From the NCBI GenBank assembly GCA_050742335.1, contig JBOGIR010000122.1:1-62480 (forward strand): 62,480 nucleotides of DNA, read 5' to 3'. This stretch comes from Vicinamibacterales bacterium (GTDB lineage Bacteria; Acidobacteriota; Vicinamibacteria; Vicinamibacterales; UBA2999). Of the stretch, positions 1,884 through 61,139 are shown one piece after another. Position 1 is the stretch's first letter. Every line of letters starts with the position of its first letter. Made by a program: the position numbers and the translations under genes. The notes beneath the pieces were generated by a model. The model worked only from the letters and a program-made list of their open reading frames with translations. It was not told the DNA's origin and searched no databases.

Positions 1884-1963
1884 GTGCAACGCTGTTGCGA
1901 AAGTGGCTCCAGCCAACCCGTCAGGAATCGCTGGGCGTCCACTCGAGAGTAGTCTGACAGGCG

Positions 1964-2368: not shown

Positions 2369-2379
2369 GCGCCAGTCTA

Positions 2380-3951: not shown

Positions 3952-3954
3952 AGG

Positions 3955-5292: not shown

Positions 5293-6263
5293 GCGCTGAG
5301 GCGCGATCGGCGGCTGCCCACGCCATCACCGGTCGAGACGTCGAAGAGATTCACTACTATCTGGCCCAGTCTCCGCGGCAGCTTCCGTCGCGCCTGCTCT
5401 ACGACGTCCTCGGGTCGAGCCTCTTTGAAGCCATCTGCCTGCTGCCGTGGTACCACATCACACGTGCGGAGATGCGTCTCCTCGTCGAGCACGGCGCGGC
5501 GATCGGTCGGCGTGTCTCAGCGACCGAGCTCGTGGAACTGGGATGCGGCAACGGCCAGAAGCTTGAAGCGCTGATGCGCGCACTGGCGCCGACCAGGCCG
5601 GACGTGCACCTGATCGATGTGTCGCGGGAGGCGCTTGACCGAACGACGCAGGTACTGCGTGCCGTAGGTGCCACGCGCATTACCGCCGCTCAGGCCACGT
5701 ACGAGGACGGACTCATGCAGCTGCCCGCGGCGCCGCAACACGGGCGCCGTCTCATTCTGTTTCTCGGGTCGAACATCGGTAACTTCGATCCGCCAGCGGC
5801 ATCGGCTTTCATACATCTCACCCGAAGAGCGCTGCGCCCGCGAGATTGGCTGCTGCTCGGTGTCGATCTTGTGAAGCCCGAGCGCGACCTGACGCTGGCC
5901 TATGACGATCCGCTCGGTGTGACGGCTGCCTTCAACAAGAATCTGTTGTTGCGCCTCAACACAGAAGCCGGCGCCAACTTCGATCTGGACGGATTCCGCC
6001 ACGAGGTGCGCTGGAATCGGCACGCGTCGAGGATTGAGATGCACCTCGTGAGCCGGCGGCGCCACGACGTCGTCGTTCCCGGTCCCACCGGCCCGTTGGC
6101 GTTCACTCTCGAGCCGGGTGAGTCGATCTGGACCGAGAGCTCGTACAAGTACGAGCCCGACGGCGTGCGGGCGCTGATGGAATCCGGCGGTTTCGAGTTG
6201 CGTTCGCAGTGGATCGAGGACGAGGCACGGGTTCTGCTGTCGCTCTTCGAGGCGGTCACGTGA
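5289..6263 (+). CDS. egtD: L-histidine N-alpha-methyltransferase EgtD
   Basis: The ATG overlaps the egtB stop (ATGA). Shows 'LPSRLLYDVLGSSLFEAICLLPWYHITRAE', 'ELGCGNGQKL' and 'FLGSNIGNFDP', typical of EgtD. The track ORF 5070..6263 is an upstream extension of this frame that overlaps egtB. Confidence 0.85.
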   Translation: MSAEARSAAAHAITGRDVEEIHYYLAQSPRQLPSRLLYDVLGSSLFEAICLLPWYHITRAEMRLLVEHGAAIGRRVSATELVELGCGNGQKLEALMRALAPTRPDVHLIDVSREALDRTTQVLRAVGATRITAAQATYEDGLMQLPAAPQHGRRLILFLGSNIGNFDPPAASAFIHLTRRALRPRDWLLLGVDLVKPERDLTLAYDDPLGVTAAFNKNLLLRLNTEAGANFDLDGFRHEVRWNRHASRIEMHLVSRRRHDVVVPGPTGPLAFTLEPGESIWTESSYKYEPDGVRALMESGGFELRSQWIEDEARVLLSLFEAVT

Positions 6264-6520: not shown

Positions 6521-7453
6521 ATGATGACTCGTCTTCTGGATTGCACGATACTGCTGGCGGCGTGCCTGGCGATCGTGATGCTGATGCCGGCGCGCCCCGC
6601 CAGCCAGGCGCTGTATCCGCGCGACGCCCCCAAGCAGCCGGGCGCGCCGAGTTGGGCGCGCGAGCGCGCGACGCTCCCTCCCTTCACCCCGCCGCGCACG
6701 CCGGAGGGGACTCCGAACCTGCAGGGACGCTGGGGCGGGCCGGCCGGAGGCGATGACATCGAAGAACACGACTACGTGGACGTGAGCTCGCCGCCCGAGG
6801 AGACCTACATCTCCGACCCGCCGGGCGGGACGATTCCGTACCAGCCGTGGGCCAAGGCGGTGCAAGCCGAGCATCGAACCGGGCTGGCGCGGGGATGGCC
6901 CGGCGAAAAGGGGCGGCTCTATCCGGACCCGCAGACGTTCTGTCTCTACAGCGTCCCGCGCGCGACGTATCGCGGCGGCTTCGAGATCGTGCAGGTCCCC
7001 GGCTACGTGATGATGCTCTACAACTTTGGCCACTACTATCGCTTCATCCCGACCGACGGGCGTCCGCACGATGTCCCCGCGCACGTCAAGCTGTGGATGG
7101 GCCATTCGCGCGGTTCGTGGCAGGGCAACACGCTCGTGGTCGACGTGACCAATCTCAATGGCAAGAACTGGCTCGACCAGGTAGGAAACTTCTTCAGCGA
7201 GAACGCCCACGTCGTCGAGCGCTTCACGCTCGCCGACGCGGACACGATCGACTACGAGACGACGATCGACGATCCAACGGTCTTTACGAGGCCGTGGACG
7301 ATCCGGTTGCCGCTGCGACGTGCCCGCGGCGGCAGCGGCGATCGCTACGCGAACGAGACCTGGGAGAACGCGTGTCACGAAGGGAACCAGGCGACCGAGC
7401 ACAATCGCACGCTCGGGTTCAAATGGTTCAGGGGGGTCACGCCCCCGAAGTGA
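6521..7453 (+). CDS. secreted protein, uncharacterised paralog family (copy D1)
   Basis: Has a signal peptide and the family motifs 'RTPEGTPNLQGRW', 'IPYQPWA', 'IPTDGRPH', 'WMGHSRGSWQGNTLVVDVTNLNGKNWLD' and 'DDPTVFTRPWT'. Confidence 0.8.
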   Translation: MMTRLLDCTILLAACLAIVMLMPARPASQALYPRDAPKQPGAPSWARERATLPPFTPPRTPEGTPNLQGRWGGPAGGDDIEEHDYVDVSSPPEETYISDPPGGTIPYQPWAKAVQAEHRTGLARGWPGEKGRLYPDPQTFCLYSVPRATYRGGFEIVQVPGYVMMLYNFGHYYRFIPTDGRPHDVPAHVKLWMGHSRGSWQGNTLVVDVTNLNGKNWLDQVGNFFSENAHVVERFTLADADTIDYETTIDDPTVFTRPWTIRLPLRRARGGSGDRYANETWENACHEGNQATEHNRTLGFKWFRGVTPPK

Positions 7454-7510: not shown

Positions 7511-8323
7511 GTGAACCGATGGTCTGATGGATGGAGGATCGCGCTGGGTACGGTGGGACTCATCGTCGCGCTGGCGCCGGCGCCGCCAGCGGCGCAGGGC
7601 GCGGCGGGGACGACCTACACGCCGCCACGGACGCGGGACGGGCATCCGGATCTGCAAGGTGTGTGGCAGGTCCTCAATGCCGCCGCGTGGAACGTTGAGG
7701 ATCATGCGGCGCGGATCGGCGTGCCTGGCGGCTACGGCGTCGTCGACGGCGGCGCGATCCCCTATCAGCCGTGGGCGCTCGCCAGGAGGCAGGAGAATTT
7801 TGCGAATCGCGCGACGCTCGATCCCGAGACGAAGTGTTACCTCCCTGGGGTCCCTCGCATTACCTACATGCCGCATCCGTTTCGCATCGTGCAGCAGGCC
7901 AACCGGGTGACGATCCTGTACGAGTACCTACACGCGGTCCGCTACGTCTTCATGAACGGCAACCCGCATCCCGAAGGACCGATCGAGTGGTGGATGGGCG
8001 ACTCACGCGGCCGCTGGGAGGGCAACACGCTCGTCGTCGACGTGATCCACCTGAGCGACAGGACCTGGCTCGATCGCGCCGGCAATTTCCACAGCGAGGC
8101 GCTGCACGTGGTCGAGCGCTACACGCCGAGCGGTCCCGATCACATCCTGTATGAGGCGACGCTCGACGATCCGAAGGTGTTCACGCGTCCCTGGACGATG
8201 AGCATGACGCTCTATCGACGCCAGGGAAAGAACGGCGACCTCATGGACTCGGAATACGACTGTTATCCCGACCTGCTGGAGCAGGAGTGGGACAAGCCGG
8301 GTTCGACCTTCTTCGCACACTGA
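7511..8323 (+). CDS. secreted protein, uncharacterised paralog family (copy D2)
   Basis: GTG start after GGAGAGGAGG. Motifs 'RTRDGHPDLQGVW', 'IPYQPWA', 'CYLPGVPR', 'WMGDSRGRWEGNTLVVDVIHLSDRTWLD' and 'DDPKVFTRPWT'. Confidence 0.8.
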   Translation: MNRWSDGWRIALGTVGLIVALAPAPPAAQGAAGTTYTPPRTRDGHPDLQGVWQVLNAAAWNVEDHAARIGVPGGYGVVDGGAIPYQPWALARRQENFANRATLDPETKCYLPGVPRITYMPHPFRIVQQANRVTILYEYLHAVRYVFMNGNPHPEGPIEWWMGDSRGRWEGNTLVVDVIHLSDRTWLDRAGNFHSEALHVVERYTPSGPDHILYEATLDDPKVFTRPWTMSMTLYRRQGKNGDLMDSEYDCYPDLLEQEWDKPGSTFFAH

Positions 8324-11833: not shown

Positions 11834-12841
11834 TTAGGGCTGCCGCGCGTAGCGGTAGCCCCCCGACACGTGAATTTCGACGACGTGGGTCGCCGGACCG
11901 TTGCCGTCGACGATGAATTGGTAGCCCAGCCCGCTTTCGAACAGCGTCTGGCTGCGTGGCACCAGCCGCTGCAGCTCGCCGCCGCCACTTGTGACGAACA
12001 ACCGGCCGTCCGAGAGCGATATCCGCGCCGTCCGCGGGTTCCCCTGATAGATCCCGCTATAAACGCCGGCGTACCGGGCCAGCACCTCAGGCGGCACGTG
12101 GACCGCCGTCTCCGTCGTGCGGGCGCTCCAGTGGTCGCTGCTGCGCTCGCACACCAACTCGAGCATCTCCGTATCGGCCGCCAGCGTCTTTTCCACCGTA
12201 TAGCTCCAGGGCTTCGCGTACGCGCCCGGATCGGTGACGGTCACTTCGATCTCCAGGTGGCCGAAGTCCCGGCGGCGGTAGCGCTCCCGCATCCGCAGCG
12301 CCTCGGTATGCGACAACCCGCGCCGGCTCACCCACGTCTTGTCGTTGAAGCCGACGCTGTCGACGACGAGCGTGTCACCGTCCCAGCGGCCCACCGAATA
12401 TCCCATCCAACTCGGAGCAGGGTTGGCTTCCAGCTCGCGACCGTCCATGAAGATCAGGCGATGGGTCAAGTCGTCGTTCAGGATGGCAATGGCGGTGGGT
12501 GTCTGGAGGACACGCTTCCAGCCCCCGAATTTCTCGGCCTCGGGCCCGTTCGGCAGACACCGGTACGCGGGACGCATCTTGAAGAACTCTTCCTGCTGCT
12601 GTCGGGCGAGGTCCCTGACCCCCGGCTTCATGTCGGTGGGGTCAGGCCGTGGCGCAGGATCTTCGCCGTTCCAGATCCCCGACAGATCCGGCTTGTCGTC
12701 GGGTCCGCGCGGCGCCGGCGCCATCAGGTTCGGCTTGCCATCGGCCGTGCGCGGGATGCCGGGCCAGGGACGATCCAGCCACTGAGCCGCCGCGGGCATC
12801 GTGCCTGCCACGAGAACAAGTGTCGCCAGAAACAGCTTCAT
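11834..12841 (-). CDS. secreted paralog-family protein with DUF3471-like C-terminal domain (array copy A1)
   Basis: The start gives 'MKLFLATLVLVAGTMPAAAQWLDRPWPGIPRTADGKPNL'. Shows 'WMGYSVGRWDGDTLVVDSVGFNDKTWV' and a C-terminal 'LARYAGVYSG...LVPRSQTLFE...QFIVDGNG'. Confidence 0.85.
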   Translation of the reverse strand: MKLFLATLVLVAGTMPAAAQWLDRPWPGIPRTADGKPNLMAPAPRGPDDKPDLSGIWNGEDPAPRPDPTDMKPGVRDLARQQQEEFFKMRPAYRCLPNGPEAEKFGGWKRVLQTPTAIAILNDDLTHRLIFMDGRELEANPAPSWMGYSVGRWDGDTLVVDSVGFNDKTWVSRRGLSHTEALRMRERYRRRDFGHLEIEVTVTDPGAYAKPWSYTVEKTLAADTEMLELVCERSSDHWSARTTETAVHVPPEVLARYAGVYSGIYQGNPRTARISLSDGRLFVTSGGGELQRLVPRSQTLFESGLGYQFIVDGNGPATHVVEIHVSGGYRYARQP

Positions 12842-12880
12842 ACGCCTCTCCGATTGTGTCGCCGTGTCGGTTAACAGGCT

Positions 12881-12997
12881 ATGGTGAAACTCACCAAGGC
12901 GCCACGGAGACACAGAGACACGGAGTCTTTTCCAGATGTTTTCTCTGTGCCTCTGTGCCTCTGTGCCTCTGTGGCCCTGCCGGGACTTGTGCCACGG
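12881..12997. repeat. CACAGAGG-type hairpin element (full copy, inverted orientation)
   Basis: Arms are GCGCCACGGAGACACAGAGACACGGAG and CTCTGTGCCTCTGTGCCTCTGTGCCTCTGTGGCCC around a T-rich loop. Fills the gap between A2 and A1. Confidence 0.85.
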
Positions 12998-13001
12998 GTT
13001 G

Positions 13002-14038
13002 TTAACGCTCCCGTGCGTACCGATAGGGGCCCGAGATGTGAACCTCCACGAGGGCGGTCGCGGCACCCGTACCGTCGACGATGAATTGATAGCCGAGTCC
13101 CAGCCCTTCGAACAGCGTCTGCGATTGCGGCACCAGCGGCCGCATCTCGCCGCCGTCGACGGCGGCGGAGCCGATCACTCTGGCGATCAGCTGGCCGCCT
13201 GAGAGCGAGACTTCGACGGTCCGCGGGCGTACCCCGTAGAACCCGCGGTAGACGCCAACGTACCGTGCCAACACGTCGGACGGAACGGTCACCGCCCTGC
13301 CTGCGGCATCCGAGAGGCTGCCGGCCCAGTGATCGCTGCTGCGTTCGCAGACGGCCTCGAGCATCTCTGTGTCGGGGGCCAGCGCCATGTTCGCCGTGAA
13401 TCCCCAGGGCTTCACGTACGCACTCGGATCGGTGTACGTGACCTCGATCTGCAGGTGGCCGACGTCCGTGCGGCGGTATCGCTCCGTCACCCGCAGCGCC
13501 TCCGTGTGCGCCTGCCCGTAGCGGCTCAGCCACGTCTTGTCGTTGAAGCCGTTGCTCTCGACGACGAGCGTGTCGCCCTCCCAGCGGCCCACGGAGTACC
13601 CATCCAGCTCGGCGCGGGCTCGGCCTCGAGCGCGCGGCCGTCCATGTGGATCAGGCGGTAGGTGAGGTCATCGCTCAGGATCGCGACGGCGGCCGGCGTC
13701 TGGAGGATGCGCTTCCATCCGCTGAATTCGTCAGCCTCGGGACCGCTCGGCCGGCACTGAAACGAGGGACGCCCTCTGTGGTACTCGCGTTGACGCTGAC
13801 GGACGAGGTCGTTGACCCACGGCTTCGCGTTGGCGGGGTCGAGGGGGGCCTCGGGATTCGGCCCGTTCCATATCCCCGTCAAGTCAGGCCTGCCGTCGGG
13901 CCCGCGCGGCGCCGGCGCCGTCAGGTTCGGCTTGCCGTCGGCCGTGCGCGGAATGCCTGACCAGGGGCGATCCAGCCATTGGGCCGCCGCCGGTATCGTG
14001 CAGGCCGCGAACATGATCGCCATGAGCAACAGCCTCAT
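13002..14038 (-). pseudogene. array copy A2, interrupted by a 1-nt deletion (two track ORFs 13002..13592 and 13526..14071)
   Basis: The N-terminal ORF ends its homology at '...APSWMG' and the C-terminal ORF resumes at 'GRWEGDTLVVESNGFNDKTWL'. At 13596-13605 the plus strand reads GTACCCATCC where paralogs read GTACCCCATCC. Confidence 0.75.
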
Positions 14039-14050
14039 AGGCCCCCTCCA

Positions 14051-14094
14051 ATTCGTGATTTGAAGCCGCAAATCATAAATCGCAAATCACGAAT
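14051..14094. repeat. hairpin ATTCGTGATTTG...CAAATCACGAAT built from AAATCNCN-type tandem units
   Basis: 12-bp perfect inverted repeat inside a low-GC tandem tract (aaatcataaatcgcaaatcacgaatcacaaatcgc). Lies between A3 and A2. Confidence 0.75.
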
Positions 14095-14117
14095 CACAAA
14101 TCGCATGATTCATCAGG

Positions 14118-15155
14118 TCACCGCTGCCGAGAAAACCGCCAAGGGCCTGATATGTGAATCTCGTCGACGCCGGTCGCGACGCCTTTGTCGTCGACGATGA
14201 ATCGATAGCCGAGTCCCAATCCATCGAACAGCGTCTCGGATTGCGGTACCAGCGGTCGAGACTCGTCGCCAGCGATGGTGCCGCCGACGACGATCTTGGC
14301 GATCAATTGGCTGCCAGAGAGCGATACTTCCACGGAGCGCCAGGTTTGCCCCCAAAAGCCATTGTAGACACCGACGTACCGCGCCAGCACGTCGGGCGCC
14401 ACGGTCACCGCCGAGTTGGCGGCATCCGAGACACTGCCGGGCCAGTGCTCGCTGCTGCGTTCGCAGACCGCCTCGAGCATCTCCGTGTCGGGCATCAGCG
14501 TCATGTTCGCCGTGATTCCCCACGGCTTCACGTACGCACCCGGATCGGTAAACGTGACGTCGATCTGCAGGTGGCCGAAGTCAGTACGCCGGAAGCGCTC
14601 CGTCACGCGCAGCGCCTCCGTGTGCGCCCGTCCGTCGGCGCTCAGCCACGTCTTGTCGTTGTAGCCGTTGCTCTCCACGACCAGCGTGTCGCCGTCCCAG
14701 CGACCCACGGAGTACCCCATCCAGCTCGGCGCGGGGTCGGCCTCCAGCACGCGGCCGTCCAGGTGGATCACACGGTGGGTGAGGTTGTCGTTCAGGATCG
14801 CCAGGGCGGCCGGTGTCTGGAGGATGCGCTTCCACCCGGCCCACCTGTCGGCCTCAGGTCCGCTCGGCCGGCACTGGAAGGACGGGCGCGCCCTGAAGTA
14901 GTCCCGGTGATGCCGTTGGACAAGGTCGTTGACCCACGGTTGTGCGTTGGCGGCGTCGTAGGCGGGGCGGGGAACCGGTCCGTTCCATATCCCCGTCAAG
15001 TCAGGCTTGCCGTCGGGTCCGCGCGGCGCCGGCGCCATCAGGTTCGGCTTGCCATCGGCCGTGCGCGGGATGCCGGCCCAGGGGCGATCCAGCCATTGGG
15101 CCGCCGCCGGCATCGTTCCGGCCGCGAGGATGAGCGCCGTGAGAAACAGCCTCAT
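14118..15155 (-). CDS. secreted paralog-family protein with DUF3471-like C-terminal domain (array copy A3)
   Basis: Shows 'MRLFLTALILAAGTMPAAAQWLDRPWAGIPRTADGKPNL', 'WMGYSVGRWDGDTLVVESNGYNDKTWL' and C-terminal 'LARYVGVYNG...LVPQSETLFD'. Confidence 0.9.
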   Translation of the reverse strand: MRLFLTALILAAGTMPAAAQWLDRPWAGIPRTADGKPNLMAPAPRGPDGKPDLTGIWNGPVPRPAYDAANAQPWVNDLVQRHHRDYFRARPSFQCRPSGPEADRWAGWKRILQTPAALAILNDNLTHRVIHLDGRVLEADPAPSWMGYSVGRWDGDTLVVESNGYNDKTWLSADGRAHTEALRVTERFRRTDFGHLQIDVTFTDPGAYVKPWGITANMTLMPDTEMLEAVCERSSEHWPGSVSDAANSAVTVAPDVLARYVGVYNGFWGQTWRSVEVSLSGSQLIAKIVVGGTIAGDESRPLVPQSETLFDGLGLGYRFIVDDKGVATGVDEIHISGPWRFSRQR

Positions 15156-15192
15156 AGCCCCTCCGTTTCTGCCTACTTGGTCCGTCTAACCA

Positions 15193-15236
15193 CCTTCGCC
15201 AAGGCTACGGTGGTCCGCCGTAGCTTTAGCGAAGGC
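15193..15236. terminator. imperfect 17-bp hairpin between A4 and A3
   Basis: CTTCGCCAAGGCTACGG-tggtccg-CCGTAGCTTTAGCGAAG, about 20 nt after the A4 stop on the coding strand. Confidence 0.45.
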
Positions 15237-15255
15237 GGAGCCGGACGCTACGTAC

Positions 15256-16299
15256 TCAACGCTGCCGCGCGAAGCGGTACGGTCCCGTGATGTTGATCTG
15301 CACGACGTCCGTCGCGATGCCTTTGTCGTCGACGATGAACTCGTAGTACAGGCCCGCGCCCTCGAAGAGCCTCTCCGACTGCGGCACCAGCGGCCGGATT
15401 TCGCCGCCGTCGACAAGGGCGCCGCCGATCACCCTGGCGATCAACTGGCCGCCCGAGAGCGTCACTTCGACGGTGCGCGCTCTCGACAGGTAGTTCCCGC
15501 TGTAGACGCCGACGTACCGCGCCAGCACCTCAGGAGGCACGGTCACCGCCCGGCTCGCGGCTTCCGAACGCGTGCCGGTCCAGTGATCGCTGCTGCGCTC
15601 GCAGATGGCTTCGAGCACTTCCGTGTCGGGCGCGAGCGCCATGTTCGCCGTGAATCCCCACGGCTTCGCGTAGGCACGCGGATCGGTGTACGTCACCTGG
15701 ATCTGCAGGTGGCCGAAGTCGGTGCGCCGATAGCGCTCGGTCACGCGCAGCGCTTCGGTGTGCGCCTGCCCGTAGCGGCTCAGCCACGTCTTGTCGTTGT
15801 AGCCGTTGCTCTCCACGACGAGCGTGTCGCCCTCCCAGCGGCCCACGGCGTACCCCATCCAGCTCGGCGCGGGCTCGGCTTCGAGCGCGCGGCCGTCCAT
15901 GTGGATCGTGCGATAGGTCTGATCGTCGTTCAGGATCGCGATGGCCGCCGGCGTCTGGAGGATGCGCTTCCACCCGGCAAACCGGTCGGACTCGGGCCCG
16001 CTCGGCAGACACTGGTACGACGGACGGTCCTTGTGGTAGTCGCGCTGCCGCTGGAGGACGAGGTCATGGACCCACGGCAGCTCGATGGTTGGGTCGGGAA
16101 GCGACTCGGGATTCGGCCCGTTCCACACGCCGGTGAGATCCGGCTTGCCGTCGGGTCCGCGCGGCGCGGGCGCGGTGAGGTTCGGTTTTCCATCAGTCGT
16201 GCGGGGAATGCCCGGCCAGGGACGATCCAGCCATTGGGCCGCCGCGGGCGTCGTGCCCACGACGAGGGCGAGCGCGGCGAGACACAACCTCATACACAC
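15256..16299 (-). CDS. secreted paralog-family protein with DUF3471-like C-terminal domain (array copy A4)
   Basis: Shows 'MRLCLAALALVVGTTPAAAQWLDRPWPGIPRTTDGKPNL' and 'WMGYAVGRWEGDTLVVESNGYNDKTWL'. The start may be 16293 instead. Confidence 0.9.
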   Translation of the reverse strand: MCMRLCLAALALVVGTTPAAAQWLDRPWPGIPRTTDGKPNLTAPAPRGPDGKPDLTGVWNGPNPESLPDPTIELPWVHDLVLQRQRDYHKDRPSYQCLPSGPESDRFAGWKRILQTPAAIAILNDDQTYRTIHMDGRALEAEPAPSWMGYAVGRWEGDTLVVESNGYNDKTWLSRYGQAHTEALRVTERYRRTDFGHLQIQVTYTDPRAYAKPWGFTANMALAPDTEVLEAICERSSDHWTGTRSEAASRAVTVPPEVLARYVGVYSGNYLSRARTVEVTLSGGQLIARVIGGALVDGGEIRPLVPQSERLFEGAGLYYEFIVDDKGIATDVVQINITGPYRFARQR

Positions 16300-16308
16300 C
16301 TTTCGACG

Positions 16309-17334
16309 CTACTTCTTGCGTGCGAACCGGAATGAGCCCGATATGTGAATCTCCACGAGCTCGGTCGCGGTTCCGCTATCGTCGACGACGAATTGATAGC
16401 CCAGCCCGATCCCTTCGAACAGCGTCTGCGTTTCCGGCACGAGCGGCCGTATCTCGCCTCCGTCGAGGAACGCAAAGCCAATGACCCTGGCGATCAACTG
16501 ACCGCCTGACAGCGACACTTCGATAGTACGGGGGCGTGTCCCATAGGCCCCGACATAGGTGCCGACATACCGGGCCAGCACCTCGGGTGGGACGGCCACC
16601 GGCGTGTCCAAACGGACCGACCAGTGGTCGGTGCCGCGCTCGCAGACGGATTCGAGCATCTCCGTATCGGCCGCCAGCGTCTTCTCCACCGTGAAGCCCC
16701 ACGGCCGCGCGTACGCACCCGGATCGCTGAAGGTGACTTCGATCTGCAGGTGGCCGAAGTCCGTGCGGCGGTAGCGCTCCGTCGCGCGCAGCGCCTCGGT
16801 ATGCGCCAGCCCTTCGGGGGTCAGCCAGGTCTTGTCGTTGAACCCGTTGCTCTCCACGACGAGCGTGTCGCCCTCCCAGCGCCCGACGGAGTAGCCCTGC
16901 CAGCTTGGCGCGGGATCGGCCTCCAGCTCACGGCCGTCCATGTGGATCACGCGATACGTGAGGTCATCGTCCAGGATGACGAGAGTGGCAGGCGTCTGCA
17001 GGATGCGCTTCCACCCGCCGAATTCGTCAGCCTCGAGCCCGCTCGGCCGGCACTGAAAGGAGGGACGCCCCCGATGGTAGTCCTGGTCACGTTGACGCAC
17101 GAGGTCGTTGACCCACGGCTGCGCGTTGGCCGGGTCGAGGAGGGGATCGGGAGTCGGCCCGTTCCAGATCCCCGTCAAATCGGGCTTGCCGTCGGGACCG
17201 CGCGGCGCGGGCGCGGTCAGGTTCGACTTCCCATCAGCCGTGCGCGGAATGCCCGCCCACGGACGATCCAGCCACTGGGCCGCGGCGGGGGTCGTGACCG
17301 CGACGAGCGCGAGTGCCGTGAGAAACAGCTTCAC
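16309..17334 (-). CDS. secreted paralog-family protein with DUF3471-like C-terminal domain (array copy A5)
   Basis: Shows 'MKLFLTALALVAVTTPAAAQWLDRPWAGIPRTADGKSNL' and 'WQGYSVGRWEGDTLVVESNGFNDKTWL'. Lies 9 nt upstream of A4. Confidence 0.9.
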   Translation of the reverse strand: MKLFLTALALVAVTTPAAAQWLDRPWAGIPRTADGKSNLTAPAPRGPDGKPDLTGIWNGPTPDPLLDPANAQPWVNDLVRQRDQDYHRGRPSFQCRPSGLEADEFGGWKRILQTPATLVILDDDLTYRVIHMDGRELEADPAPSWQGYSVGRWEGDTLVVESNGFNDKTWLTPEGLAHTEALRATERYRRTDFGHLQIEVTFSDPGAYARPWGFTVEKTLAADTEMLESVCERGTDHWSVRLDTPVAVPPEVLARYVGTYVGAYGTRPRTIEVSLSGGQLIARVIGFAFLDGGEIRPLVPETQTLFEGIGLGYQFVVDDSGTATELVEIHISGSFRFARKK

Positions 17335-17338
17335 ACCG

Positions 17339-18397
17339 TCACTTCACGCGCGCGTATCTGTAGGGACCGGAGATGTGAATCACGATGAGGGCCGTTGCCG
17401 GGCCCTTGTCGCCGACCTCGAACTGATAGCCGAGCCCCAGGCCTTCGAACACCGTCTGGGAAATCGGCACCAGCGGCCGCGGCGTGCCGTCCTCGAGGCC
17501 GGCGGCGCCGAGGCCCCCCTCGATGGCCGGGCCGACGATCGTGGCAACCAGCTCGTTGCCGGAGAGCGACACTTCGTACGTCCGCTCGCGTCCGCCATAG
17601 ATCCCTTTGTAGACGCCGACGTACCGGGCGAGCTGGTCGCGCGGCACGCTCACCCTCGCGCTAGCGGCATCCGAGAGGCTGCCCCAGTGCTCGCTGCTGC
17701 GTTCGCAGACCGCCTCGAGCATTTCCGTATCGGCGGTGAGCCTCATGGTCGCCTTGAAGCCCCACGGCTTCGTGTACGCGCGCGGGTCGGTGTAGGTGAC
17801 CTCCACCTGGAGACTGCCGAAGTTGGTACGCCGGTAGCGTTCGGTGATCCGCAGCGCATCCGAATGCGAGACCCCGTAGCGGCTCGTCCACACCTTCTCG
17901 TTGTATCCGTTGCTCTCCACGACGAGCGTGTCGCCTTCCCAGCGGCCCACCGAGTACCCGGTCCAGCTTGGCGCGGGCTCGGCTTCGAGCGTGCGGCCGT
18001 CCATGTGGATCACGCGATATGTCAGGTCGTCGTTCAGGAAGGCGATGACGGTCGGCGTCTGGAGGACGCGCTTCCAGCCGCCATACCGCTCCGCCTCGGG
18101 TCCGCTCGGCCGGCACTGGTAATAGGGACGCGAGCGGTGGTACTCCTGCTGATGCTTGCGGGCGAGATCCAGGACCCACGGCTGCAGGTCGGAGGGCTCC
18201 GGACGGCCGAGGATCTGTCCGGCGTTCCATATCCCCGTCAAATCCGGCTTGCCGTCGGGCCCGCGCGGCGCGGGCGCCGCCAGGTTCGGCTTGCCGTCGG
18301 GAGTCCGCGGGATGGCCGGCCATGGACGATCCAGCCATTGGGCCGCCGCGGGCATCGTGCCCGCGATCAGAACGAGTGCCGCGAGAAAGAGCGTCAT
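17339..18397 (-). CDS. secreted paralog-family protein with DUF3471-like C-terminal domain (array copy A6)
   Basis: The start gives 'MTLFLAALVLIAGTMPAAAQWLDRPWPAIPRTPDGKPNL'. Shows 'WTGYSVGRWEGDTLVVESNGYNEKVWT'. Lies 4 nt upstream of A5. Confidence 0.85.
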   Translation of the reverse strand: MTLFLAALVLIAGTMPAAAQWLDRPWPAIPRTPDGKPNLAAPAPRGPDGKPDLTGIWNAGQILGRPEPSDLQPWVLDLARKHQQEYHRSRPYYQCRPSGPEAERYGGWKRVLQTPTVIAFLNDDLTYRVIHMDGRTLEAEPAPSWTGYSVGRWEGDTLVVESNGYNEKVWTSRYGVSHSDALRITERYRRTNFGSLQVEVTYTDPRAYTKPWGFKATMRLTADTEMLEAVCERSSEHWGSLSDAASARVSVPRDQLARYVGVYKGIYGGRERTYEVSLSGNELVATIVGPAIEGGLGAAGLEDGTPRPLVPISQTVFEGLGLGYQFEVGDKGPATALIVIHISGPYRYARVK

Positions 18398-28107: not shown

Positions 28108-28149
28108 ACGGGACGCGCTACACTGTCGCCGTTGACCGGGAGGGGTGCC

Positions 28150-29052
28150 ATGACGATGAGAGCCGGGACAGTTGTCGCGTCTGCGCTGTTGCTCGCAACG
28201 CCCTCGTGGGCCCAGGACCTCGGGCCGCACTTCCGCAAAATCGCAGACGGCATCTACGTGCAGACCGCGCGCGAGGTCAATTCCAACGTCGGGATCATTC
28301 TCACGAGCGACGGCGTGGTGCTCATCGACAGTGGCCAGACGCCGATCGATACGCGTGAAGTGGCGGAGGTCGTGAAGAAGCTCACGCCGCTGCCGGTCAA
28401 GTACATCATCGATACCGAGGTACATCCCGACCACACCACCGGCCACTTCGTGTTCTCGCCTCCTGCGATCGTCGTCAACCACCAGGGCGCCGGCGACGCC
28501 ATGCGGAAAGCGGAGAACCCGAACCGGTCGCAGACGCTTGCCGCGCAGTCTCCCGAGATGGCGCAGGCCTCACAGGGTTACCGGCTCGTCGTGCCCCACA
28601 TCGAGTACCAGCAGAAGATGACGTTGCGCGTGGGGGAGCGAACCCTCGAGCTCATGCACCTGAAGAACGCCCACAGCGAAGCGGATACCGCCGTGTGGCT
28701 GCCTGCTGAACGCGTCCTGTTCGCCTCGTCGGTCGCGATTCCAAACAGCCTCAACAACGTGCGGGCCTTCGTCACGATTCCCGAGATGCTGGCTGCGACG
28801 CGCATGCTGCGATCGTTGAACCCGGCCGCCGTCATCCCGGGACACGGCTCGTTCGGGACAACCGCGATCTTCGATGCGAGTGAGAAGTACTACACGCTCC
28901 TGGTGGAGCGCGTGCGCGCGATGGTCATGCAGGGACGAACGCGCGACGAGATTACCAAGGAGCTCAAGATGCCGGAATCGGCGAGCTGGGCCTACCAGGA
29001 CCGGTGGCCGAGCAACGTGGATGCGGCGTATCGCGCCGCGACACAGAAGTAG
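28150..29052 (+). CDS. MBL-fold metallo-hydrolase, secreted
   Basis: Signal peptide 'MTMRAGTVVASALLLATPSWAQ'. Shows 'VVLIDSGQTP' and a metal motif that reads 'TEVHPDHTTG' (E-x-H-x-D-H). Confidence 0.8.
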   Translation: MTMRAGTVVASALLLATPSWAQDLGPHFRKIADGIYVQTAREVNSNVGIILTSDGVVLIDSGQTPIDTREVAEVVKKLTPLPVKYIIDTEVHPDHTTGHFVFSPPAIVVNHQGAGDAMRKAENPNRSQTLAAQSPEMAQASQGYRLVVPHIEYQQKMTLRVGERTLELMHLKNAHSEADTAVWLPAERVLFASSVAIPNSLNNVRAFVTIPEMLAATRMLRSLNPAAVIPGHGSFGTTAIFDASEKYYTLLVERVRAMVMQGRTRDEITKELKMPESASWAYQDRWPSNVDAAYRAATQK

Positions 29053-29142: not shown

Positions 29143-30048
29143 ATGGGAGTTCCGACAATGCCACATCCTGGTTGGGTTGTAATGGCCGTCCTTTTCGTTG
29201 CAACGCTGGGCCTCCCCGCTGAGACACTCGCCCAGGCGAATGCTTCGGGTGGCTGGTTGGTTCCGGAGTGGAACAAACCGCCGGTCACGGATGCGAACAG
29301 GAAGCCGGCGCCGCGGCGCAGCCTGGCCGGCACGTGGGGGCCGGCAGCGGGAGCGGGCGCAGGGACCCAGGCAAGTGGTGTGCAGTTGAAGCCGAACAAC
29401 GGCAGGCCGGAAAATCAACTTCCGTATACTCCCTACGGCCTGGAGCTGTACAAGTCCCACAAGGCGCTCGAGGGGATCGACGCGGTGCTGCCTTCCCAGG
29501 ACAACGATCCCAGAAATCGCTGCGAGCCGTTGGGAATGCCGCGCTACAACCACTACAACGTCAGGCTCACGCAGTTCTTTCAAGACGAGCACAAGATTGT
29601 GATCCTGTATCACTACGACAACCGCTGGCGCGTCATCTGGACCGACGGTCGCCAGCTTCCCACCTTGGTGGATGGCGGCGTCGCCATCGCCGGTGAAATC
29701 CGGGAGCCGCGGTTCTTCGGCTACTCGGTGGGCCGGTGGATAGACGACTACACGTTCCAGGTCCAGACGGTAGGCGCGATGCCGGAAGACCGCGTGTGGC
29801 TCGATTCGACGGGCCGGCCCATCAGCGACCAGGTCCGCGTCACCGAGACATTTCAGCGCGTGGACTATGACACGCTGGTGTGGTCGGAAACGATCGACGA
29901 TCCGAAGGTGTATGCCAGGCCGTGGGAGACCTTGAAACTCCCGATGCGCTTGCACGATCCCCGTACCGACATCCAGGAGTACTACTGCTCACCGGCCGAG
30001 CAGGAGAACTACAACAAGCTGTTCGGCAACACGGCGAGCGGCAAGTAG
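29143..30048 (+). CDS. secreted protein, uncharacterised paralog family (divergent copy B1)
   Basis: Shows 'LPYTPYG', 'RCEPLGMPR', 'WTDGRQL', 'FFGYSVGRWIDDYTFQVQTVG', 'RVWLDSTGRPISDQVRVTETFQR' and 'DDPKVYARPWE'. Confidence 0.8.
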   Translation: MGVPTMPHPGWVVMAVLFVATLGLPAETLAQANASGGWLVPEWNKPPVTDANRKPAPRRSLAGTWGPAAGAGAGTQASGVQLKPNNGRPENQLPYTPYGLELYKSHKALEGIDAVLPSQDNDPRNRCEPLGMPRYNHYNVRLTQFFQDEHKIVILYHYDNRWRVIWTDGRQLPTLVDGGVAIAGEIREPRFFGYSVGRWIDDYTFQVQTVGAMPEDRVWLDSTGRPISDQVRVTETFQRVDYDTLVWSETIDDPKVYARPWETLKLPMRLHDPRTDIQEYYCSPAEQENYNKLFGNTASGK

Positions 30049-30057
30049 GCTATATAG

Positions 30058-30122
30058 AGTCTTTGGTCTTTGGTCTCTGGTCTTTGGGCGCGACTAAAGA
30101 CCAAAGACTAAAGACTAGAGAG
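30058..30122. repeat. hairpin element built from GGTCTTT/CAAAGAC 7-mers
   Basis: AGTCTTTGGTCTTTGGTCTCTGGTCTTTGG-gcgcga-CTAAAGACCAAAGACTAAAGACTAGAG. Lies between B1 and the DUF6152-like gene. Confidence 0.85.
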
Positions 30123-30147: not shown

Positions 30148-30552
30148 ATGAGAAATCGGCCGGTCGTCGTGTTGGCTCTCGCCGTCGGGCTGCTGATGCC
30201 ATGGCCCCTGCTCGCGCACCACGGCAGCGCGGCGTTTGACACCGGGAAAAAGGTGACGCTGAAAGGGACTGTGAAGGAATGGGTGTACTCCAATCCCCAC
30301 TGTCTGCTGAGACTGGACGTCACAGGCGAGGACGGCCAGGTGGTGCCGTGGGTTGCGGAGGGTCAGGCTCCGAATGTCATCTTTCCCGCCGGCTACCGCA
30401 AGGATTCGTTCAAGGCTGGAGACCAAGTGACAGTCATTGTGGAGCCCGTCAAGAATGGTCGGCCCTTGGGGCGCATCCTCCAGTCCGTGCTCGCCGATGG
30501 CAAAGTCCTGGGCGTTGCGTCATCTGCCGGGACAGCACCACCGCAGCCATAA
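30148..30552 (+). CDS. small secreted protein, DUF6152-like, mature N-terminus His-His
   Basis: The signal peptide ends '...PWPLLA|HHGSAAFD'. Shows 'VTLKGTVKEWVYSNPHCLLRLDV'. A paralog sits at 58161. Confidence 0.8.
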   Translation: MRNRPVVVLALAVGLLMPWPLLAHHGSAAFDTGKKVTLKGTVKEWVYSNPHCLLRLDVTGEDGQVVPWVAEGQAPNVIFPAGYRKDSFKAGDQVTVIVEPVKNGRPLGRILQSVLADGKVLGVASSAGTAPPQP

Positions 30553-30591
30553 TTCGGGGCCCGCAAGCGGCAAGAGGCCAGCGAGGGATTC

Positions 30592-31446
30592 ATGAAGAAG
30601 GTGCCGTACCTGTTCGCCGCGCTGCTGGCGCTGGCGCTCGCGCCTGCAGCGGAGTCGCAGCAGGTCGGCGGCGCCGCGCCCGGGCCCGCGGCCGGCGAGG
30701 TGCCGTTCATCTTTCTGCCCAGTCCGACGATCCCCGACGCAGACGCCGCGCGTCAGCCGATTCCGCGGCTGCCCGATGGCACCGTGGATCTCACCGGCCC
30801 CTGGGTGGGCGGCGGCTCCAACGTCGACATCGAGCTCGAGGGTGGATTGAAGCCTGGAGATCTGCCACTCCTCCCCTGGGCGAGCGAGGTCAGGGCCAGG
30901 CGAAACAAGGCAGAGGAACCCTACACGGCGTGCCTGCCGATGGGGGTCCCGCGTGTCAACCCGTACCCGTGGAAATTCGCGATGTCCTACACCGCGAAGG
31001 GACTGTCGCATATCTACGTGCTGCACGAGACCGGCGACGCGGGCGCGCATCGCGTCGTCTACATGGACGGCCGCACGCATCCTGCGGACCCGATCCCGAC
31101 GTGGTGGGGGCACTCGATCGGCCGGTGGGACGACGACACGCTCGTCGTCGACACCGTGGGCTACAACGACAAGTTCTGGTTCGACAGCCGCGGCACGCCG
31201 CACACCGAGCAACTGCACACGGTGGAGCGGTATACGCGCATCAACTGGGGACGACTGCGCCACGTGTTCCGCCTGGACGACCCGGGCGCGTTCTCGAGAC
31301 CGGTGACGTTGAACTTCGTGGCGCGGCTGCTGCGCCCGGACCTGAAGACGGGCGGCGGCGAGCTGATGGAGTTCATCTGCCTCGAGGACAATCAGTACGG
31401 CTCCGCGGCGGGGCTGAGGCCGGGCACCGGGACCAGCCTCAAGTAG
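30592..31446 (+). CDS. secreted protein, uncharacterised paralog family (copy B2)
   Basis: Shows 'LPDGTVDLTGPW', 'ACLPMGVPR', 'YMDGRTH', 'WWGHSIGRWDDDTLVVDTVGYNDKFWFD' and 'PHTEQLHTVERYTR'. Lies 39 nt after the DUF6152-like gene. Confidence 0.85.
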   Translation: MKKVPYLFAALLALALAPAAESQQVGGAAPGPAAGEVPFIFLPSPTIPDADAARQPIPRLPDGTVDLTGPWVGGGSNVDIELEGGLKPGDLPLLPWASEVRARRNKAEEPYTACLPMGVPRVNPYPWKFAMSYTAKGLSHIYVLHETGDAGAHRVVYMDGRTHPADPIPTWWGHSIGRWDDDTLVVDTVGYNDKFWFDSRGTPHTEQLHTVERYTRINWGRLRHVFRLDDPGAFSRPVTLNFVARLLRPDLKTGGGELMEFICLEDNQYGSAAGLRPGTGTSLK

Positions 31447-31472
31447 AGAGGACCGCGTCGAGCGGGTTGACG

Positions 31473-31772
31473 ATGCCGATTCACGAATACGCATGCAAGG
31501 CGTGCGGCAGCCAGTTCGAGCATCTCTTGCTCCCGGCCGCGAAGACCGAGCCCGTCTGCCCGGCCTGCGGGAGCCGGGACCTCGAGAAGCTGATGTCCGG
31601 GTTCGCGTTGAGCACACGCGAACTGACGAAGGCGCGCGTCAAGGCGGCGCGGACACAGATGGCGCAGAGCAAGGACCACAAGGACAAGCAGGTCGCGGAA
31701 GCCGAGTACCACAAGCACCACATCGAGGACCACCTGCCACCCTCCGATACTCCGCCACGCCGAAGCAAATGA
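31473..31772 (+). CDS. FmdB-family zinc-ribbon protein
   Basis: 'MPIHEYACKACGSQFEHL....CPACGS' is the canonical FmdB/CxxC-x-CxxC N-terminus. Confidence 0.8.
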   Translation: MPIHEYACKACGSQFEHLLLPAAKTEPVCPACGSRDLEKLMSGFALSTRELTKARVKAARTQMAQSKDHKDKQVAEAEYHKHHIEDHLPPSDTPPRRSK

Positions 31773-33139
31773 CTTCCGGATCGTGGCGGATGGTCATCCT
31801 CGCCAGCCTGGGCGGCACGCTGGAGTACTTCGACTTCATGCTGTTCGCCATCTTCGCGCAGCAGATTGGCCAGGCGGTGTTCCCCAGCAGCGATCCGCTC
31901 GTGTCGCTCATGCTGGCCTTCACCACGTTCGCCGTGGGGTACCTGGCGAGGCCGATTGGCGGCGTGATCCTCGGCAACCTTGGCGACCGGTTCGGGCGGC
32001 GCGGCGTGTTCCTCGCCTCAATCTTCATCACCTCTGCCGCCACGCTCGGCATCGGGCTGGTGCCGGCCTACGCCTCGTGGGGCATCGCGGCCAGCATCAC
32101 GGTCGTGGCGCTGCGCATCATCCAGGGGTTCTGCCTGGGAGGAGAGCTGCCGGGCGCCGTGACCTACGTCGTCGAGTCGGCGCCCCGGTTGGCGCCCTTC
32201 GTCTGCAGCGTCGTCTATGCGTGTGTCACTGCCGGCGTGGCGATCGCCACGGGGATCGCGCTGGTCGTGGGCCGCGTGATGACTCCAGAGGAGGCGGTGC
32301 AGTACGGATGGCGCATCGCGTTCATCGCCGGCGGCGTCATGGGGCTGGCCGGCTACTGGCTGCGCCGTTCCTTTGAAGAGTCGGCCGAGTTCGCGGAGCT
32401 GAAGCGGCTCAAGGCGGTGTCGACGCACCCGTTTCGCGATCTCGTTCGCACGCACCCCTGGCAGATTGTGGCCGCCATGGCGGTGCAGTGCTCGACCGCA
32501 GGTTTCAACGGTCTGTTCTTCGCCCATATGCCGGCGTACCTGATCGGCGTGCTCCAGTACGACCAGCAGACGGCCGTGTTCGCGCAGACCTACGGCGTGG
32601 TGTTGCACGCGATGCTGATTCTCGCGGCCGGCTGGCTCGCCCTGCGTGTGGCGCCGCACCTGTTGCTGCGGGCCGGAGCGGTGATGCTGGCCGTCGGCGC
32701 CTACCCCTTCTACGCCGCACTGTCCAGCCGGCCGGCGGACCTCGTCCTGCTCATGACCGTGGCGGCAGCCGGAGGGGCGTTCGTGAATGCAACGTTCGCG
32801 TTCGTCACCGCCGACCTGTTTGCCACGCGCGTCAGGTTCAGCGGCATCGCGGTGGCGCAGAACATCACTCAATCGGCATTCGGCGGCACGACGCCACTCA
32901 TCGCCACCGCATTGATCGCGACGCTGGGAACGGCGGCGGCGCCTGCCGCGTATCTGATTGGGTGCGCCGTCATCACGTTTCTAGGCAGTCTCGCGGCCAC
33001 CCGGTTCAGCAGTCAGCTTCGCCGTGCCGGAGACGGGTCGCGCATGAGCGCCACGCCGGCAACGCCGGCAGATCTACGGAGCGGCGGAGTGGGTGCGTTG
33101 CGCCAGGCGCCGGCCCATATGCGGCAACCGGCGCCGTGA
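31769..33139 (+). CDS. MFS transporter, metabolite:H+ symporter (MHS) family
   Basis: The ATG overlaps the zinc-ribbon stop (ATGA). Shows 'LEYFDFMLFAIFA' and 'RPIGGVILGNLGDRFGRRGVF', MHS hallmarks. Confidence 0.85.
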   Translation: MTSGSWRMVILASLGGTLEYFDFMLFAIFAQQIGQAVFPSSDPLVSLMLAFTTFAVGYLARPIGGVILGNLGDRFGRRGVFLASIFITSAATLGIGLVPAYASWGIAASITVVALRIIQGFCLGGELPGAVTYVVESAPRLAPFVCSVVYACVTAGVAIATGIALVVGRVMTPEEAVQYGWRIAFIAGGVMGLAGYWLRRSFEESAEFAELKRLKAVSTHPFRDLVRTHPWQIVAAMAVQCSTAGFNGLFFAHMPAYLIGVLQYDQQTAVFAQTYGVVLHAMLILAAGWLALRVAPHLLLRAGAVMLAVGAYPFYAALSSRPADLVLLMTVAAAGGAFVNATFAFVTADLFATRVRFSGIAVAQNITQSAFGGTTPLIATALIATLGTAAAPAAYLIGCAVITFLGSLAATRFSSQLRRAGDGSRMSATPATPADLRSGGVGALRQAPAHMRQPAP

Positions 33140-56735: not shown

Positions 56736-56829
56736 CTTAGTCTTTAGTCTCTAGTCTCTGGTCTTTGGTGGTGCTCCGTCAGGTTCAAACCAAAGACCAA
56801 AGACGAAAGACCAAAGACCAAAGACGAAC
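56736..56829. repeat. hairpin element built from GGTCTNT/CAAAGAC 7-mers
   Basis: CTTAGTCTTTAGTCTCTAGTCTCTGGTCTTTGGT ... AAACCAAAGACCAAAGACGAAAGACCAAAGACCAAAGACGAAC. Confidence 0.85.
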
Positions 56830-57916: not shown

Positions 57917-58085
57917 CCAGAGACCAGAGACCAGAACCGGTTTCATGACCATGTTGGCCGACTTCGCCACGTCGCTCCGCAAACCGGGAACTGACGCTGC
58001 AGAGCACGGTTTGCTTCGGACGTGGCGCAAGTCGGCTTCCGCACCGGGTTATGAAACCGGCTCTAGAGGACCAAGGCCCAGAGCC
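57917..58085. repeat. ~170-nt extended imperfect hairpin (possible structured RNA/MITE) upstream of the second DUF6152-like gene
   Basis: Pairing segments are CCGGTTTCAT/ATGAAACCGG, GGCCGACTTCGCCACGTC/GACGTGGCGCAAGTCGGC and CCGCAAACCG/CGGTTTGC. Outer arms are CCAGAGACCAGAGACC / GGACCAAGGCCCAGAG. Confidence 0.7.
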
Positions 58086-58160
58086 TGATGAACTCACAAT
58101 CGCCCTCTTGACACCGTCGTGACTGCCCGCAATACTCCGCCACGACGTGAGGGCTGGGGC

Positions 58161-58571
58161 ATGATGGTGCGACGGGGAGGGCGTGTGGGACGACCCGCAG
58201 GCATGGGCACGGGCCAAGGCTGGCTGCTGGTGGCACTCTTATTCACCGTTGTCGTTGCGCCGGCCGCGGCGCATCATTCACACTCCATGTTCGACACCAG
58301 CCGGGAAGTACCGATCACGGGGACGGTGACGGACTATTCCTACAGGAATCCGCACGTGTTCCTCTACCTCGACGTCAAAGGCGAGGACGGTCAGGTCGCG
58401 TCGTGGGCCGTCGAGATGTCGAACATTACGAACATGCAGCGGCGCGGCATCCATCGCTCGACGTTCAAGGCGGGCGACATCGTGATGGTGAGGGTCAACC
58501 CGCTGAAGGACGGGCGGCCCGGCGGGAACTACACCTCGGTGACGGCGGCCGACGGCAAGACCTACGAGTGA
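58161..58571 (+). CDS. small secreted protein, DUF6152-like, mature N-terminus His-His
   Basis: Shows '...VVVAPAAA|HHSHSMFD' and 'ITGTVTDYSYRNPHVFLYLDV'. Paralog of the 30148 gene. The start is ambiguous (58119, 58161 or 58203). Confidence 0.8.
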   Translation: MMVRRGGRVGRPAGMGTGQGWLLVALLFTVVVAPAAAHHSHSMFDTSREVPITGTVTDYSYRNPHVFLYLDVKGEDGQVASWAVEMSNITNMQRRGIHRSTFKAGDIVMVRVNPLKDGRPGGNYTSVTAADGKTYE

Positions 58572-61109: not shown

Positions 61110-61139
61110 ATGATAGTAGACTCCCCTTCAGAAGGAGAC

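Follow-up and report, generated by a model that had tools for sequence, protein, structure and literature searches.

The locus considered here raises the question of whether two small, apparently exported proteins, each predicted to begin with two consecutive histidines once its signal peptide has been removed, work together with the secreted proteins encoded beside them, and in which chemistry such a partnership might engage. The genes lie in a 62,480-nt stretch of DNA analyzed at its full length (hereafter, the window), a contig of 65% G+C from a metagenome-assembled genome of Vicinamibacterales (Acidobacteriota). The small proteins, S1 and S2, belong to DUF6152, a family that is catalogued in Pfam and uncharacterised, and their neighbors B1, B2, and C1 belong to an uncatalogued family of secreted proteins, which we named FAM. 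The pairing of DUF6152 with FAM is robust, widespread, and unpublished, and comparison of genomes suggests that the two almost certainly act together in the periplasm, either as two subunits or as one fused chain. We regard it as probable that this uncharacterised two-part system binds a metal, and a role in redox chemistry is possible.

All five genes are encoded on the plus strand. S1 (30148-30552; 134 aa) carries a predicted signal peptide (30148-30216), a predicted mature N-terminus at His24-His25 (30217-30222, with ...PLLA before the cut and HHGS after it), and the histidine of a conserved Asn-Pro-His motif at His51 (30298-30300). It is preceded by B1 (29143-30048; 301 aa), which ends 99 nt before S1, and followed after 39 nt by B2 (30592-31446; 284 aa). 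S2 (58161-58571; 136 aa counted from its ATG) has its predicted mature start at His38-His39 (58272-58277, ...PAAA before and HHSH after the cut) and its Asn-Pro-His histidine at His65 (58353-58355), and it lies 9 nt upstream of C1 (58581-59657; 358 aa), a diverged FAM member. The mechanical open reading frame (ORF) of S2 begins at GTG 58119, and a promoter-like site at 58108-58136 seems to favor the ATG over this start; scans for promoters and terminators around both modules gave counts at chance level. The third codon positions of S1, B2, S2, and C1 are rich in G+C, as is usual for genuine genes in this DNA, and good ribosome-binding sites were found upstream of S1 (AGGAAAGAGGG) and of B2.

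A preliminary description of the window, made from the sequence alone, had reported two modules, each consisting of a small gene and a downstream family gene, with coordinates, lengths, and spacers that were exact. Its assignment to DUF6152 was also borne out, as the profile search assigned PF19649 (gathering cut-off of 27 bits) to S1 with 89.1 bits (E 2e-25) and to S2 with 97.7 bits (E 4.5e-28), and an NCBI entry identical to S1 is named 'DUF6152 family protein'. The two small proteins are paralogs, as proposed, with 45.5% identity over 101 aa (E 8e-26, tblastn), and the core motif 'KGTV..W.Y.NPH..L.LDV.GEDGQ' is present and conserved. B2 and C1 were likewise correctly placed in an expanded paralog family, of which the 62-kb window holds 12 copies: they are distant paralogs sharing 29% identity (E 2e-7), and B1 and B2 are also paralogous (E 6e-17).

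The functional partnership that had been proposed from the two window modules was sustained by gene-neighborhood analysis. A scan with the DUF6152 alignment, keeping one genome per species, provided 51 loci from Acidobacteriota (Vicinamibacterales, Terriglobia, Bryobacterales), Sphingomonas, Caulobacter, Hyphomicrobiales, and several Gammaproteobacteria, and their six-frame ORFs were searched with hidden Markov models made from the window's own sequences. Out of 60 DUF6152 domains, 50 had a FAM domain adjacent on the same strand or fused to them: FAM was directly upstream of 31, directly downstream of 8, on both sides of 6, and within the same ORF in 5, and the other 10 had no FAM within 700 bp. 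Seen from the partner's side, these loci contain 71 FAM domains, 52 of which adjoin DUF6152 or are fused to it. The conserved order is specific to each subfamily. For S1, a B1 ortholog (61-82% identity) stands immediately upstream in all 16 of the closest relatives (L001-L016), with some of the pairs overlapping by 4 bp at stop and start, and an ortholog of B2 follows in only one of these genomes (L003). For S2, a metagenome scan yielded 80 loci, 63 of which were evaluable downstream (at least 600 bp of sequence) and 55 upstream; FAM was found directly downstream in 59 of the 63, mostly as C1 orthologs, and upstream in none of the 55, and a C1 ortholog also directly follows the S2 relative in one of the genome loci (L023). 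The order is thus FAM (B1) followed by DUF6152 in the S1 subfamily and DUF6152 followed by FAM in the S2 subfamily. The earlier generalization of a small gene followed by a family gene holds for the latter and fails for the former, in which B1, overlooked at the time, is the conserved partner and B2 a less conserved neighbor.

An expanded family may produce such neighbors by accident: with 12 FAM copies in 62 kb, any gene has sizeable odds of lying beside one, and the two DUF6152 genes might simply happen to do so. This explanation has a practically negligible probability and was rejected, given that same-strand pairing recurs across several phyla in the proportions described above, that the order is fixed within each subfamily, in some cases with overlapping genes, and that the two domains are abundantly fused in nature. 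At least 120 clusters (at 90% identity) of full-length DUF6152-FAM fusions were recovered, all bearing PF19649 and Ala-His-His. A search with one fusion returned proteins of 334-389 aa, 56-99% identical, which share a layout of signal peptide, Ala-His-His, OB domain, Pro/Ala-rich linker, and a FAM domain devoid of a signal peptide of its own. The AlphaFold2 model of one fusion, P0241, reached a predicted local distance difference test (pLDDT) score of 86.4 and a predicted template-modelling (pTM) score of 0.82, the latter being too high for freely oriented domains. Because adjacency is recurrent and fusions are found besides, the partnership is as firm as comparative genomics allows. The dependence appears to run in one direction, with DUF6152 relying on FAM and FAM not relying on DUF6152.

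The N-terminus of the small protein exhibits an equally strict pattern. Of 62 single-domain homologs, 59 carry Ala-His-His immediately after the hydrophobic leader, and the other three are truncated ORF calls or a degenerate copy; the motif is invariant in 68 aligned fusions, and the mature His-His of S1 and S2 aligns to position 12 of the PF19649 profile. Across 127 N-termini, a strongly hydrophobic 10-residue window precedes this motif, position -1 is Ala in 126, and every sequence has Leu, Ala, Val, Met, Thr, Ile, or Gly at position -3. The S2-like metagenome set has either Ala (52) or Ser (28) at position -1, which together account for 80 of 80. As nearly every homolog conforms to the (-3,-1) rule and has the hydrophobic core, the junction looks like a site for signal peptidase I, and the mature protein is expected to start with His-His, in line with the cleavage proposed at the outset. 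No twin-arginine consensus for Tat (twin-arginine translocation) export was found in the leaders of S1 and S2, as read from their sequences. Other near-invariant residues include a Gly in strand 1, the Asn-Pro-His motif at the turn between strands 1 and 2, and the Glu of 'W.vE' that ends strand 3. No conserved Met was present in the alignments of the 62 single-domain proteins and 68 fusions, and the 62 single-domain homologs have no conserved C-terminal His.

In the AlphaFold2 model of P0241, the DUF6152 part comprises strands at residues 29-46, 51-57, and 60-66, a helix at 69-74, and strands at 87-95 and 102-110, which make up a barrel of five strands in which a helix follows strand 3. When the whole fusion was compared with the PDB using Foldseek, only the OB domains of LysRS, Stn1, and RPA matched (E ~2e-4). 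DUF6152 is thus predicted to be an OB fold, as modelled on this homolog and not on S1 or S2 themselves, and the model suggests that the conserved Glu lies next to the Asn-Pro-His histidine on the same face, at the ends of adjacent strands. Sequence searches of the PDB with S1 and with profiles of DUF6152 and FAM returned no match.

This fold brings up the possibility that no cofactor is involved and that DUF6152 is a BOF-like OB protein that binds a peptide, a glycan, or an envelope component and escorts or regulates FAM, with His-His serving processing, pH sensing, or packing. One source labels a fusion 'YdeI (BOF family)', the OB domain of a fusion produced a weak match to BOF (PF04076) of 17.6 bits (E 0.004), below the cut-off of 25.8 bits, and the genes surrounding DUF6152 carry no consistent functional signal. 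SipA and YdeI, both of the BOF family, are described as binding peptides and porins without metals (PMC6370654). However, S1 and S2 gave no match to the BOF profile, BOF proteins lack an invariant N-terminal His-His, and the near-absolute invariance of three His and one Glu across phyla would be unusual for a structural role, so we regard a cofactor-free function as quite unlikely.

The partner family is very large. An exhaustive profile search retrieved 21,987 FAM clusters (50% identity) at E <=1e-3 and 12,657 at E <=1e-10, and no Pfam or NCBIfam model matched the FAM core in B1, B2, C1, and 115 family members. Members bear signal peptides and share the motifs 'PDL.G.W', 'C.P.G.P', 'DGR', 'G.S.GRWEGDTLVV', 'ER', 'DP...PW', and a C-terminal 'E..C'; the conserved polar residues are Arg, Asp, Glu, and Ser, and the two near-invariant Cys suggest a disulfide. 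The AlphaFold2 model of B2 (pLDDT 83.8, pTM 0.80) places eight consecutive strands within residues 128-247, preceded by short helices. The best Foldseek matches of B2 were SAHS/FABP, streptavidin, UnaG, nitrophorin, and lipocalins, none of them significant (E no better than 5e-3; template-modelling scores of 0.48-0.56 on the target); on these weak matches FAM is predicted to be an eight-stranded calycin-like barrel. FAM domains were also found as tandem FAM-FAM, followed by DUF3471, preceded by a carboxypeptidase-regulatory-like domain or by an unknown N-terminal barrel domain, and in one case fused to cytochrome c. At least 90% of 115 aligned FAM members have Ala-Gln after the hydrophobic leader (e.g., 30592-30670 and 58581-58665), which suggests that the mature N-terminus of FAM is a conserved Gln that may form pyroglutamate. 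A literature search for the motif WEGDTLVV found no paper, and none was found that mentions DUF6152 or that combines a histidine brace with an OB fold.

A barrel of this kind might alternatively serve cofactor or hydrophobic-ligand handling, in which a CcmE-like OB domain would use its terminal His to ligate a haem, tetrapyrrole, or quinone held in the FAM barrel, so that together they would make up a b-type cytochrome of two subunits or carry lipids or quinones. Haem, bilins, fatty acids, and isoprenoids are common ligands of calycin barrels, and FABP, UnaG, nitrophorin, and lipocalins are among the FAM matches; a YceI-like isoprenoid-binding protein is encoded in the Sphingomonas cluster, and the redox context described below would fit a haem carrier equally well. 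The sole match to CcmE (PF03100) came from one gammaproteobacterial homolog at 13.4 bits (E 0.1), though, like the BOF match, this was below threshold, and the Foldseek matches of FAM fell short of significance at best. In addition, an adjacent pair of His cannot supply both axial ligands of one haem, and haem ligation has no need of the free amino terminus that the strict Ala-His-His pattern suggests to be important. We therefore consider this alternative very unlikely.

From the family membership, the conserved pairing, the fusions, the two folds, and the invariance of Ala-His-His, we infer cleavage, metal binding, a particular metal, a physical interface, and a redox role, which would combine as follows. 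Signal peptidase I would cut after the invariant Ala, leaving mature DUF6152 to start with His-His. A metal site would be built from the free amino group and imidazoles of this terminus, probably with the participation of the invariant Asn-Pro-His histidine and the conserved Glu, and Cu(II)/Cu(I) is the leading candidate for its metal. Each DUF6152 protein would form a complex with a secreted FAM protein, whose eight-stranded calycin-like barrel, N-terminal helical wrap, and probable Cys-Cys bridge would hold a small-molecule ligand or substrate, and in some lineages both parts would reside in one polypeptide (signal peptide, His-His, OB domain, linker, FAM). The pair would then act as a periplasmic redox accessory that takes electrons from dehydrogenases or acts on their products, occupying the operon position held elsewhere by cytochrome c. 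A His-His metal site with FAM as partner in such an accessory is the best overall explanation that we can offer, at somewhat less than an even chance of being correct. The comparison with histidine-brace copper sites goes back to the preliminary description and has the standing of a hypothesis. Among its parts, a ligand or substrate pocket is most likely what FAM supplies. The processed His-His terminus is likely to serve as a metal ligand, given the analogy to the histidine brace, the chelation of Cu(II) by Xaa-His termini, and the precedent of CusF/SilF. Copper as the metal is a tentative suggestion by analogy, possible but short of probable, which leads because of the redox neighbors and because DUF6152-FAM stands where some operons carry cytochrome c. 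Tight Cu(II) binding is a property of N-terminal Xaa-His peptides. In every known class of histidine-brace protein the N-terminal His is unmasked by cleavage of a signal peptide, and the brace consists of the amino group, the N-pi of His1, and the N-tau of a second His in a T-shaped coordination of Cu (PMC10952591). CusF and SilF are described as periplasmic Cu(I)/Ag(I) chaperones with an OB fold (PMC10656224).

The genomic surroundings provide the hints of redox chemistry. All-against-all clustering of the ORFs from the 51 genome and 80 metagenome loci detected no universal third partner gene, and the recurrent neighbors were restricted to lineages, comprising iorAB, TctA/B, MetE-like genes, pyrroloquinoline quinone (PQQ) dehydrogenases, metallo-beta-lactamase-fold genes, and TonB-dependent receptors with YceI. 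A fusion of cytochrome c (CQACH) with FAM, P0410, is encoded in locus L055 (8001-8993) in an operon with a second FAM and DUF6152; the order there is FAM, cytochrome c, PQQ dehydrogenase (opposite strand), a CMD-like gene, cytochrome c-FAM, FAM, and DUF6152, with a metallo-beta-lactamase-fold gene also beside the operon. Apart from P0410, no CxxCH was found in the FAM- or DUF6152-matching ORFs of the 51 genome loci or in ~390 family proteins. PQQ dehydrogenases occur within 5 kb in 6 of 55 loci (L009, L031, L043, L044, L048, and L055), and in L031 the dehydrogenase is directly upstream of a DUF6152 gene that has no FAM neighbor. Ten of the closest metagenome relatives of S2-C1 (L061, L063, L066, L070, L072, L077, L080, L094 at 965-5370, L096, and L105) belong to an operon that encodes an IorA-like [2Fe-2S] protein, a Tat-exported IorB-like molybdopterin subunit with the twin-arginine leader SRRDFI (MTTSRRDFI...), DUF6152, and FAM, and no CxxCH ORF was present in these ten loci. 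A published iorAB-like periplasmic dehydrogenase has cytochrome c as its conserved third gene, proposed to be the electron acceptor (PMC6365646).

The same neighborhoods also bear on a non-redox reading, in which DUF6152 is a ZinT-like periplasmic binder of Zn(II) or Ni(II) that passes the metal from a 3-His-1-Glu site to partner proteins or transporters, with FAM as docking or carrier subunit. Three invariant His and one Glu make a classic zinc ligand set, and E. coli ZinT starts with His after cleavage of its signal peptide. Metallo-beta-lactamase-fold genes lie near S1 (28141-29052) and in six further loci (L003, L014, L017, L025, L026, and L055), zinc-dependent MetE-like enzymes directly adjoin 'solo' DUF6152 genes in six Terriglobia loci, and in Sphingomonas the module is downstream of a TonB-dependent receptor (L025, 174-6257, in the order TonB-dependent receptor, YceI-like, FAM, DUF6152, FAM; and L026, 838-5330). 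Against this, the loci showed no znuABC, zur, or COG0523 genes. The MetE-like neighbors carry no signal peptides, which makes a direct hand-over unlikely, FAM offers no conserved metal ligands, and the cytochrome c fusion and the IorAB and PQQ contexts would be left unexplained. Metal capture of this type is, in our assessment, unlikely.

Several observations weigh against the redox accessory as well. The PQQ and IorAB contexts are lineage-restricted, and neither is found in the window; the cytochrome c-FAM fusion was met in 1 of 150 representatives; ~135 loci showed no genes of copper homeostasis (cop, cus, sco); and the metallo-beta-lactamase-fold and MetE-like neighbors point to zinc enzymes. 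The FAM alignments contain no invariant His, Met, or free Cys, and FAM appears to work without DUF6152, because 10 of the 12 FAM genes in the window have no DUF6152 neighbor. A type-2 copper site would be atypical as an electron carrier. Furthermore, the start of strand 1 and the loop between strands 1 and 2 are at opposite ends of a canonical OB barrel, and since the start of strand 1 lies away from the Asn-Pro-His end, His-His may make up a site of its own or extend into the partner. The most specific version of the redox proposal is rather doubtful: it would make DUF6152 a new class of OB-fold, histidine-brace-type cuproprotein with a His-His amino terminus that works only with a dedicated calycin-like FAM subunit. 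In soil Acidobacteriota, Sphingomonadales, and marine Gammaproteobacteria, the two would constitute a widespread periplasmic copper redox module that either replaces cytochrome c beside molybdenum and PQQ dehydrogenases or oxidizes a small molecule bound in the barrel.

The neighbors of the two window modules themselves are uninformative. S1 is surrounded by the metallo-beta-lactamase-fold gene, an FmdB zinc-ribbon ORF, a major facilitator superfamily transporter, and an NHL propeller, and S2 by a helix-turn-helix regulator, a cupin, and a Ser/Thr kinase. The small ORF right after B2 (31455-31772, plus strand) encodes two CxxC pairs (MPIHEYACKACGSQFE...CPACGS) resembling an FmdB-type zinc ribbon, and is followed by the transporter (~31778-33139). 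The B1-S1 spacer contains a palindromic element of GTCTTTG heptads (30059-30115) with a 27-bp hairpin and a predicted RNA fold of -41.2 kcal/mol (z -7); further copies are at 56754-56825 and 57917-57931, and a pattern search counted 11 matches in the window against 0.03 expected. The element is missing from orthologous loci, in which B1 and S1 abut or overlap, and it looks like a mobile intergenic insertion similar to repetitive extragenic palindromic (REP) sequences.

The remaining FAM genes of the window include a pair on the plus strand (6521-7453 and 7511-8323), a tandem array of six paralogs on the minus strand (11834-18397), and a gene at 61098-62081. One copy in the array (~13347-14038, minus strand; ORFs 12871-13533/13002-13592 and 13526-14071) is frameshifted and represents either a pseudogene or an assembly error. 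None of the array paralogs has a DUF6152 neighbor, most have a C-terminal extension of ~100 aa, and DUF3471 matched the C-terminal extensions of four scanned FAM members. Directly 5' of the plus-strand pair are an EgtB-like gene (3955-5292, plus strand; DinB_2 plus FGE-sulfatase) and an EgtD-like gene for a histidine-specific methyltransferase (5070-6263, plus strand), which resemble an ergothioneine biosynthesis pair. Within DUF6152, we also observed a 123-aa subtype with the mature start HHSTTMYNM that often lacks a FAM neighbor and lies beside a gene for a cytoplasmic MetE-like (Meth_synt_2) protein. The MetE-like genes are in six loci of Terriglobia and Bryobacterales (L018, 7810-8847; L019, 3626-4663; L032, 5348-6511; L036, 3814-4911 and 6079-7128; L037, 5393-6445; and L042, 5516-6565), two of which have DUF1684 genes upstream.

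If the proposed metal site proves correct, the module would add a new fold and a two-subunit architecture to the few proteins that use an N-terminal His unmasked from a signal peptide as metal ligand. It would also provide the first functional lead for FAM, a family of ~22,000 clusters with no Pfam model, and a candidate for the missing electron partner or downstream enzyme of the periplasmic molybdenum and PQQ dehydrogenases in abundant, poorly studied soil bacteria. Two small secreted proteins make the hypothesis open to direct testing.

Comparison with known systems brings out both shared and distinguishing features. Like the histidine-brace proteins (lytic polysaccharide monooxygenases (LPMOs) of AA9-AA17, X325, Bim1, CopC, PmoF1, and YcnI), DUF6152 is exported, has an invariant His as its predicted first mature residue, and conserves at least one further His, for which His2 or the Asn-Pro-His histidine is the candidate second ligand of a brace; PQQ or haem dehydrogenases supply known LPMOs with electrons, and PQQ and molybdenum dehydrogenases are encoded near DUF6152 genes. 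The fold differs, being a predicted OB fold and neither an Ig/FnIII-like nor a cupredoxin-like sandwich, and DUF6152 has a His at position 2, an obligatory barrel partner, and no cop operon, so that the module resembles these proteins in the predicted unmasked N-terminal His alone. CusF and SilF are likewise small periplasmic OB-fold proteins, which demonstrates that the fold can carry copper in the periplasm, yet the CusF site is formed by His-Met-Met(-Trp) on strands 2 and 3, whereas DUF6152 has no conserved Met, its candidate ligands are the N-terminal His-His, Asn-Pro-His, and Glu, and its context has no cusCBA. The BOF proteins (YgiW, YdeI, SipA) and CcmE are also periplasmic OB-fold proteins of ~100-130 aa that bear signal peptides, but they have neither the N-terminal His-His and Asn-Pro-His nor a calycin-like partner, DUF6152 scores below their Pfam cut-offs, and CcmE binds haem through a C-terminal His (HxxxY).

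ZinT (YodA) combines features of both partners, as a periplasmic metal binder with a His-rich mature N-terminus and a calycin-like barrel comparable to that predicted for FAM; its His-rich tail and barrel belong to a single protein, whose barrel contains a 3-His zinc site, whereas here the His residues are on the OB subunit, the FAM barrel has no conserved His, and no sequence similarity was detected. The predicted eight-stranded antiparallel core of FAM recalls the calycin superfamily (lipocalins, FABPs, avidins, SAHS), from which FAM differs in ~100 extra N-terminal residues with helices, in its conserved Cys pair, and in having no profile or PDB sequence match. As for operon organization, the ten S2-C1 relatives that directly follow genes for the [2Fe-2S] and Tat-exported molybdenum cofactor subunits stand at the cytochrome c position of iorA-iorB-cytochrome c operons such as that of the Pseudomonas simiae deoxyribose dehydrogenase; they differ in having DUF6152 and FAM in place of the cytochrome, and S2-C1 in the window has no iorAB upstream. 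Taken with its likeness to the histidine-brace proteins, DUF6152 may be filed, by analogy, as a putative variant among the exported proteins with an N-terminal-His metal site.

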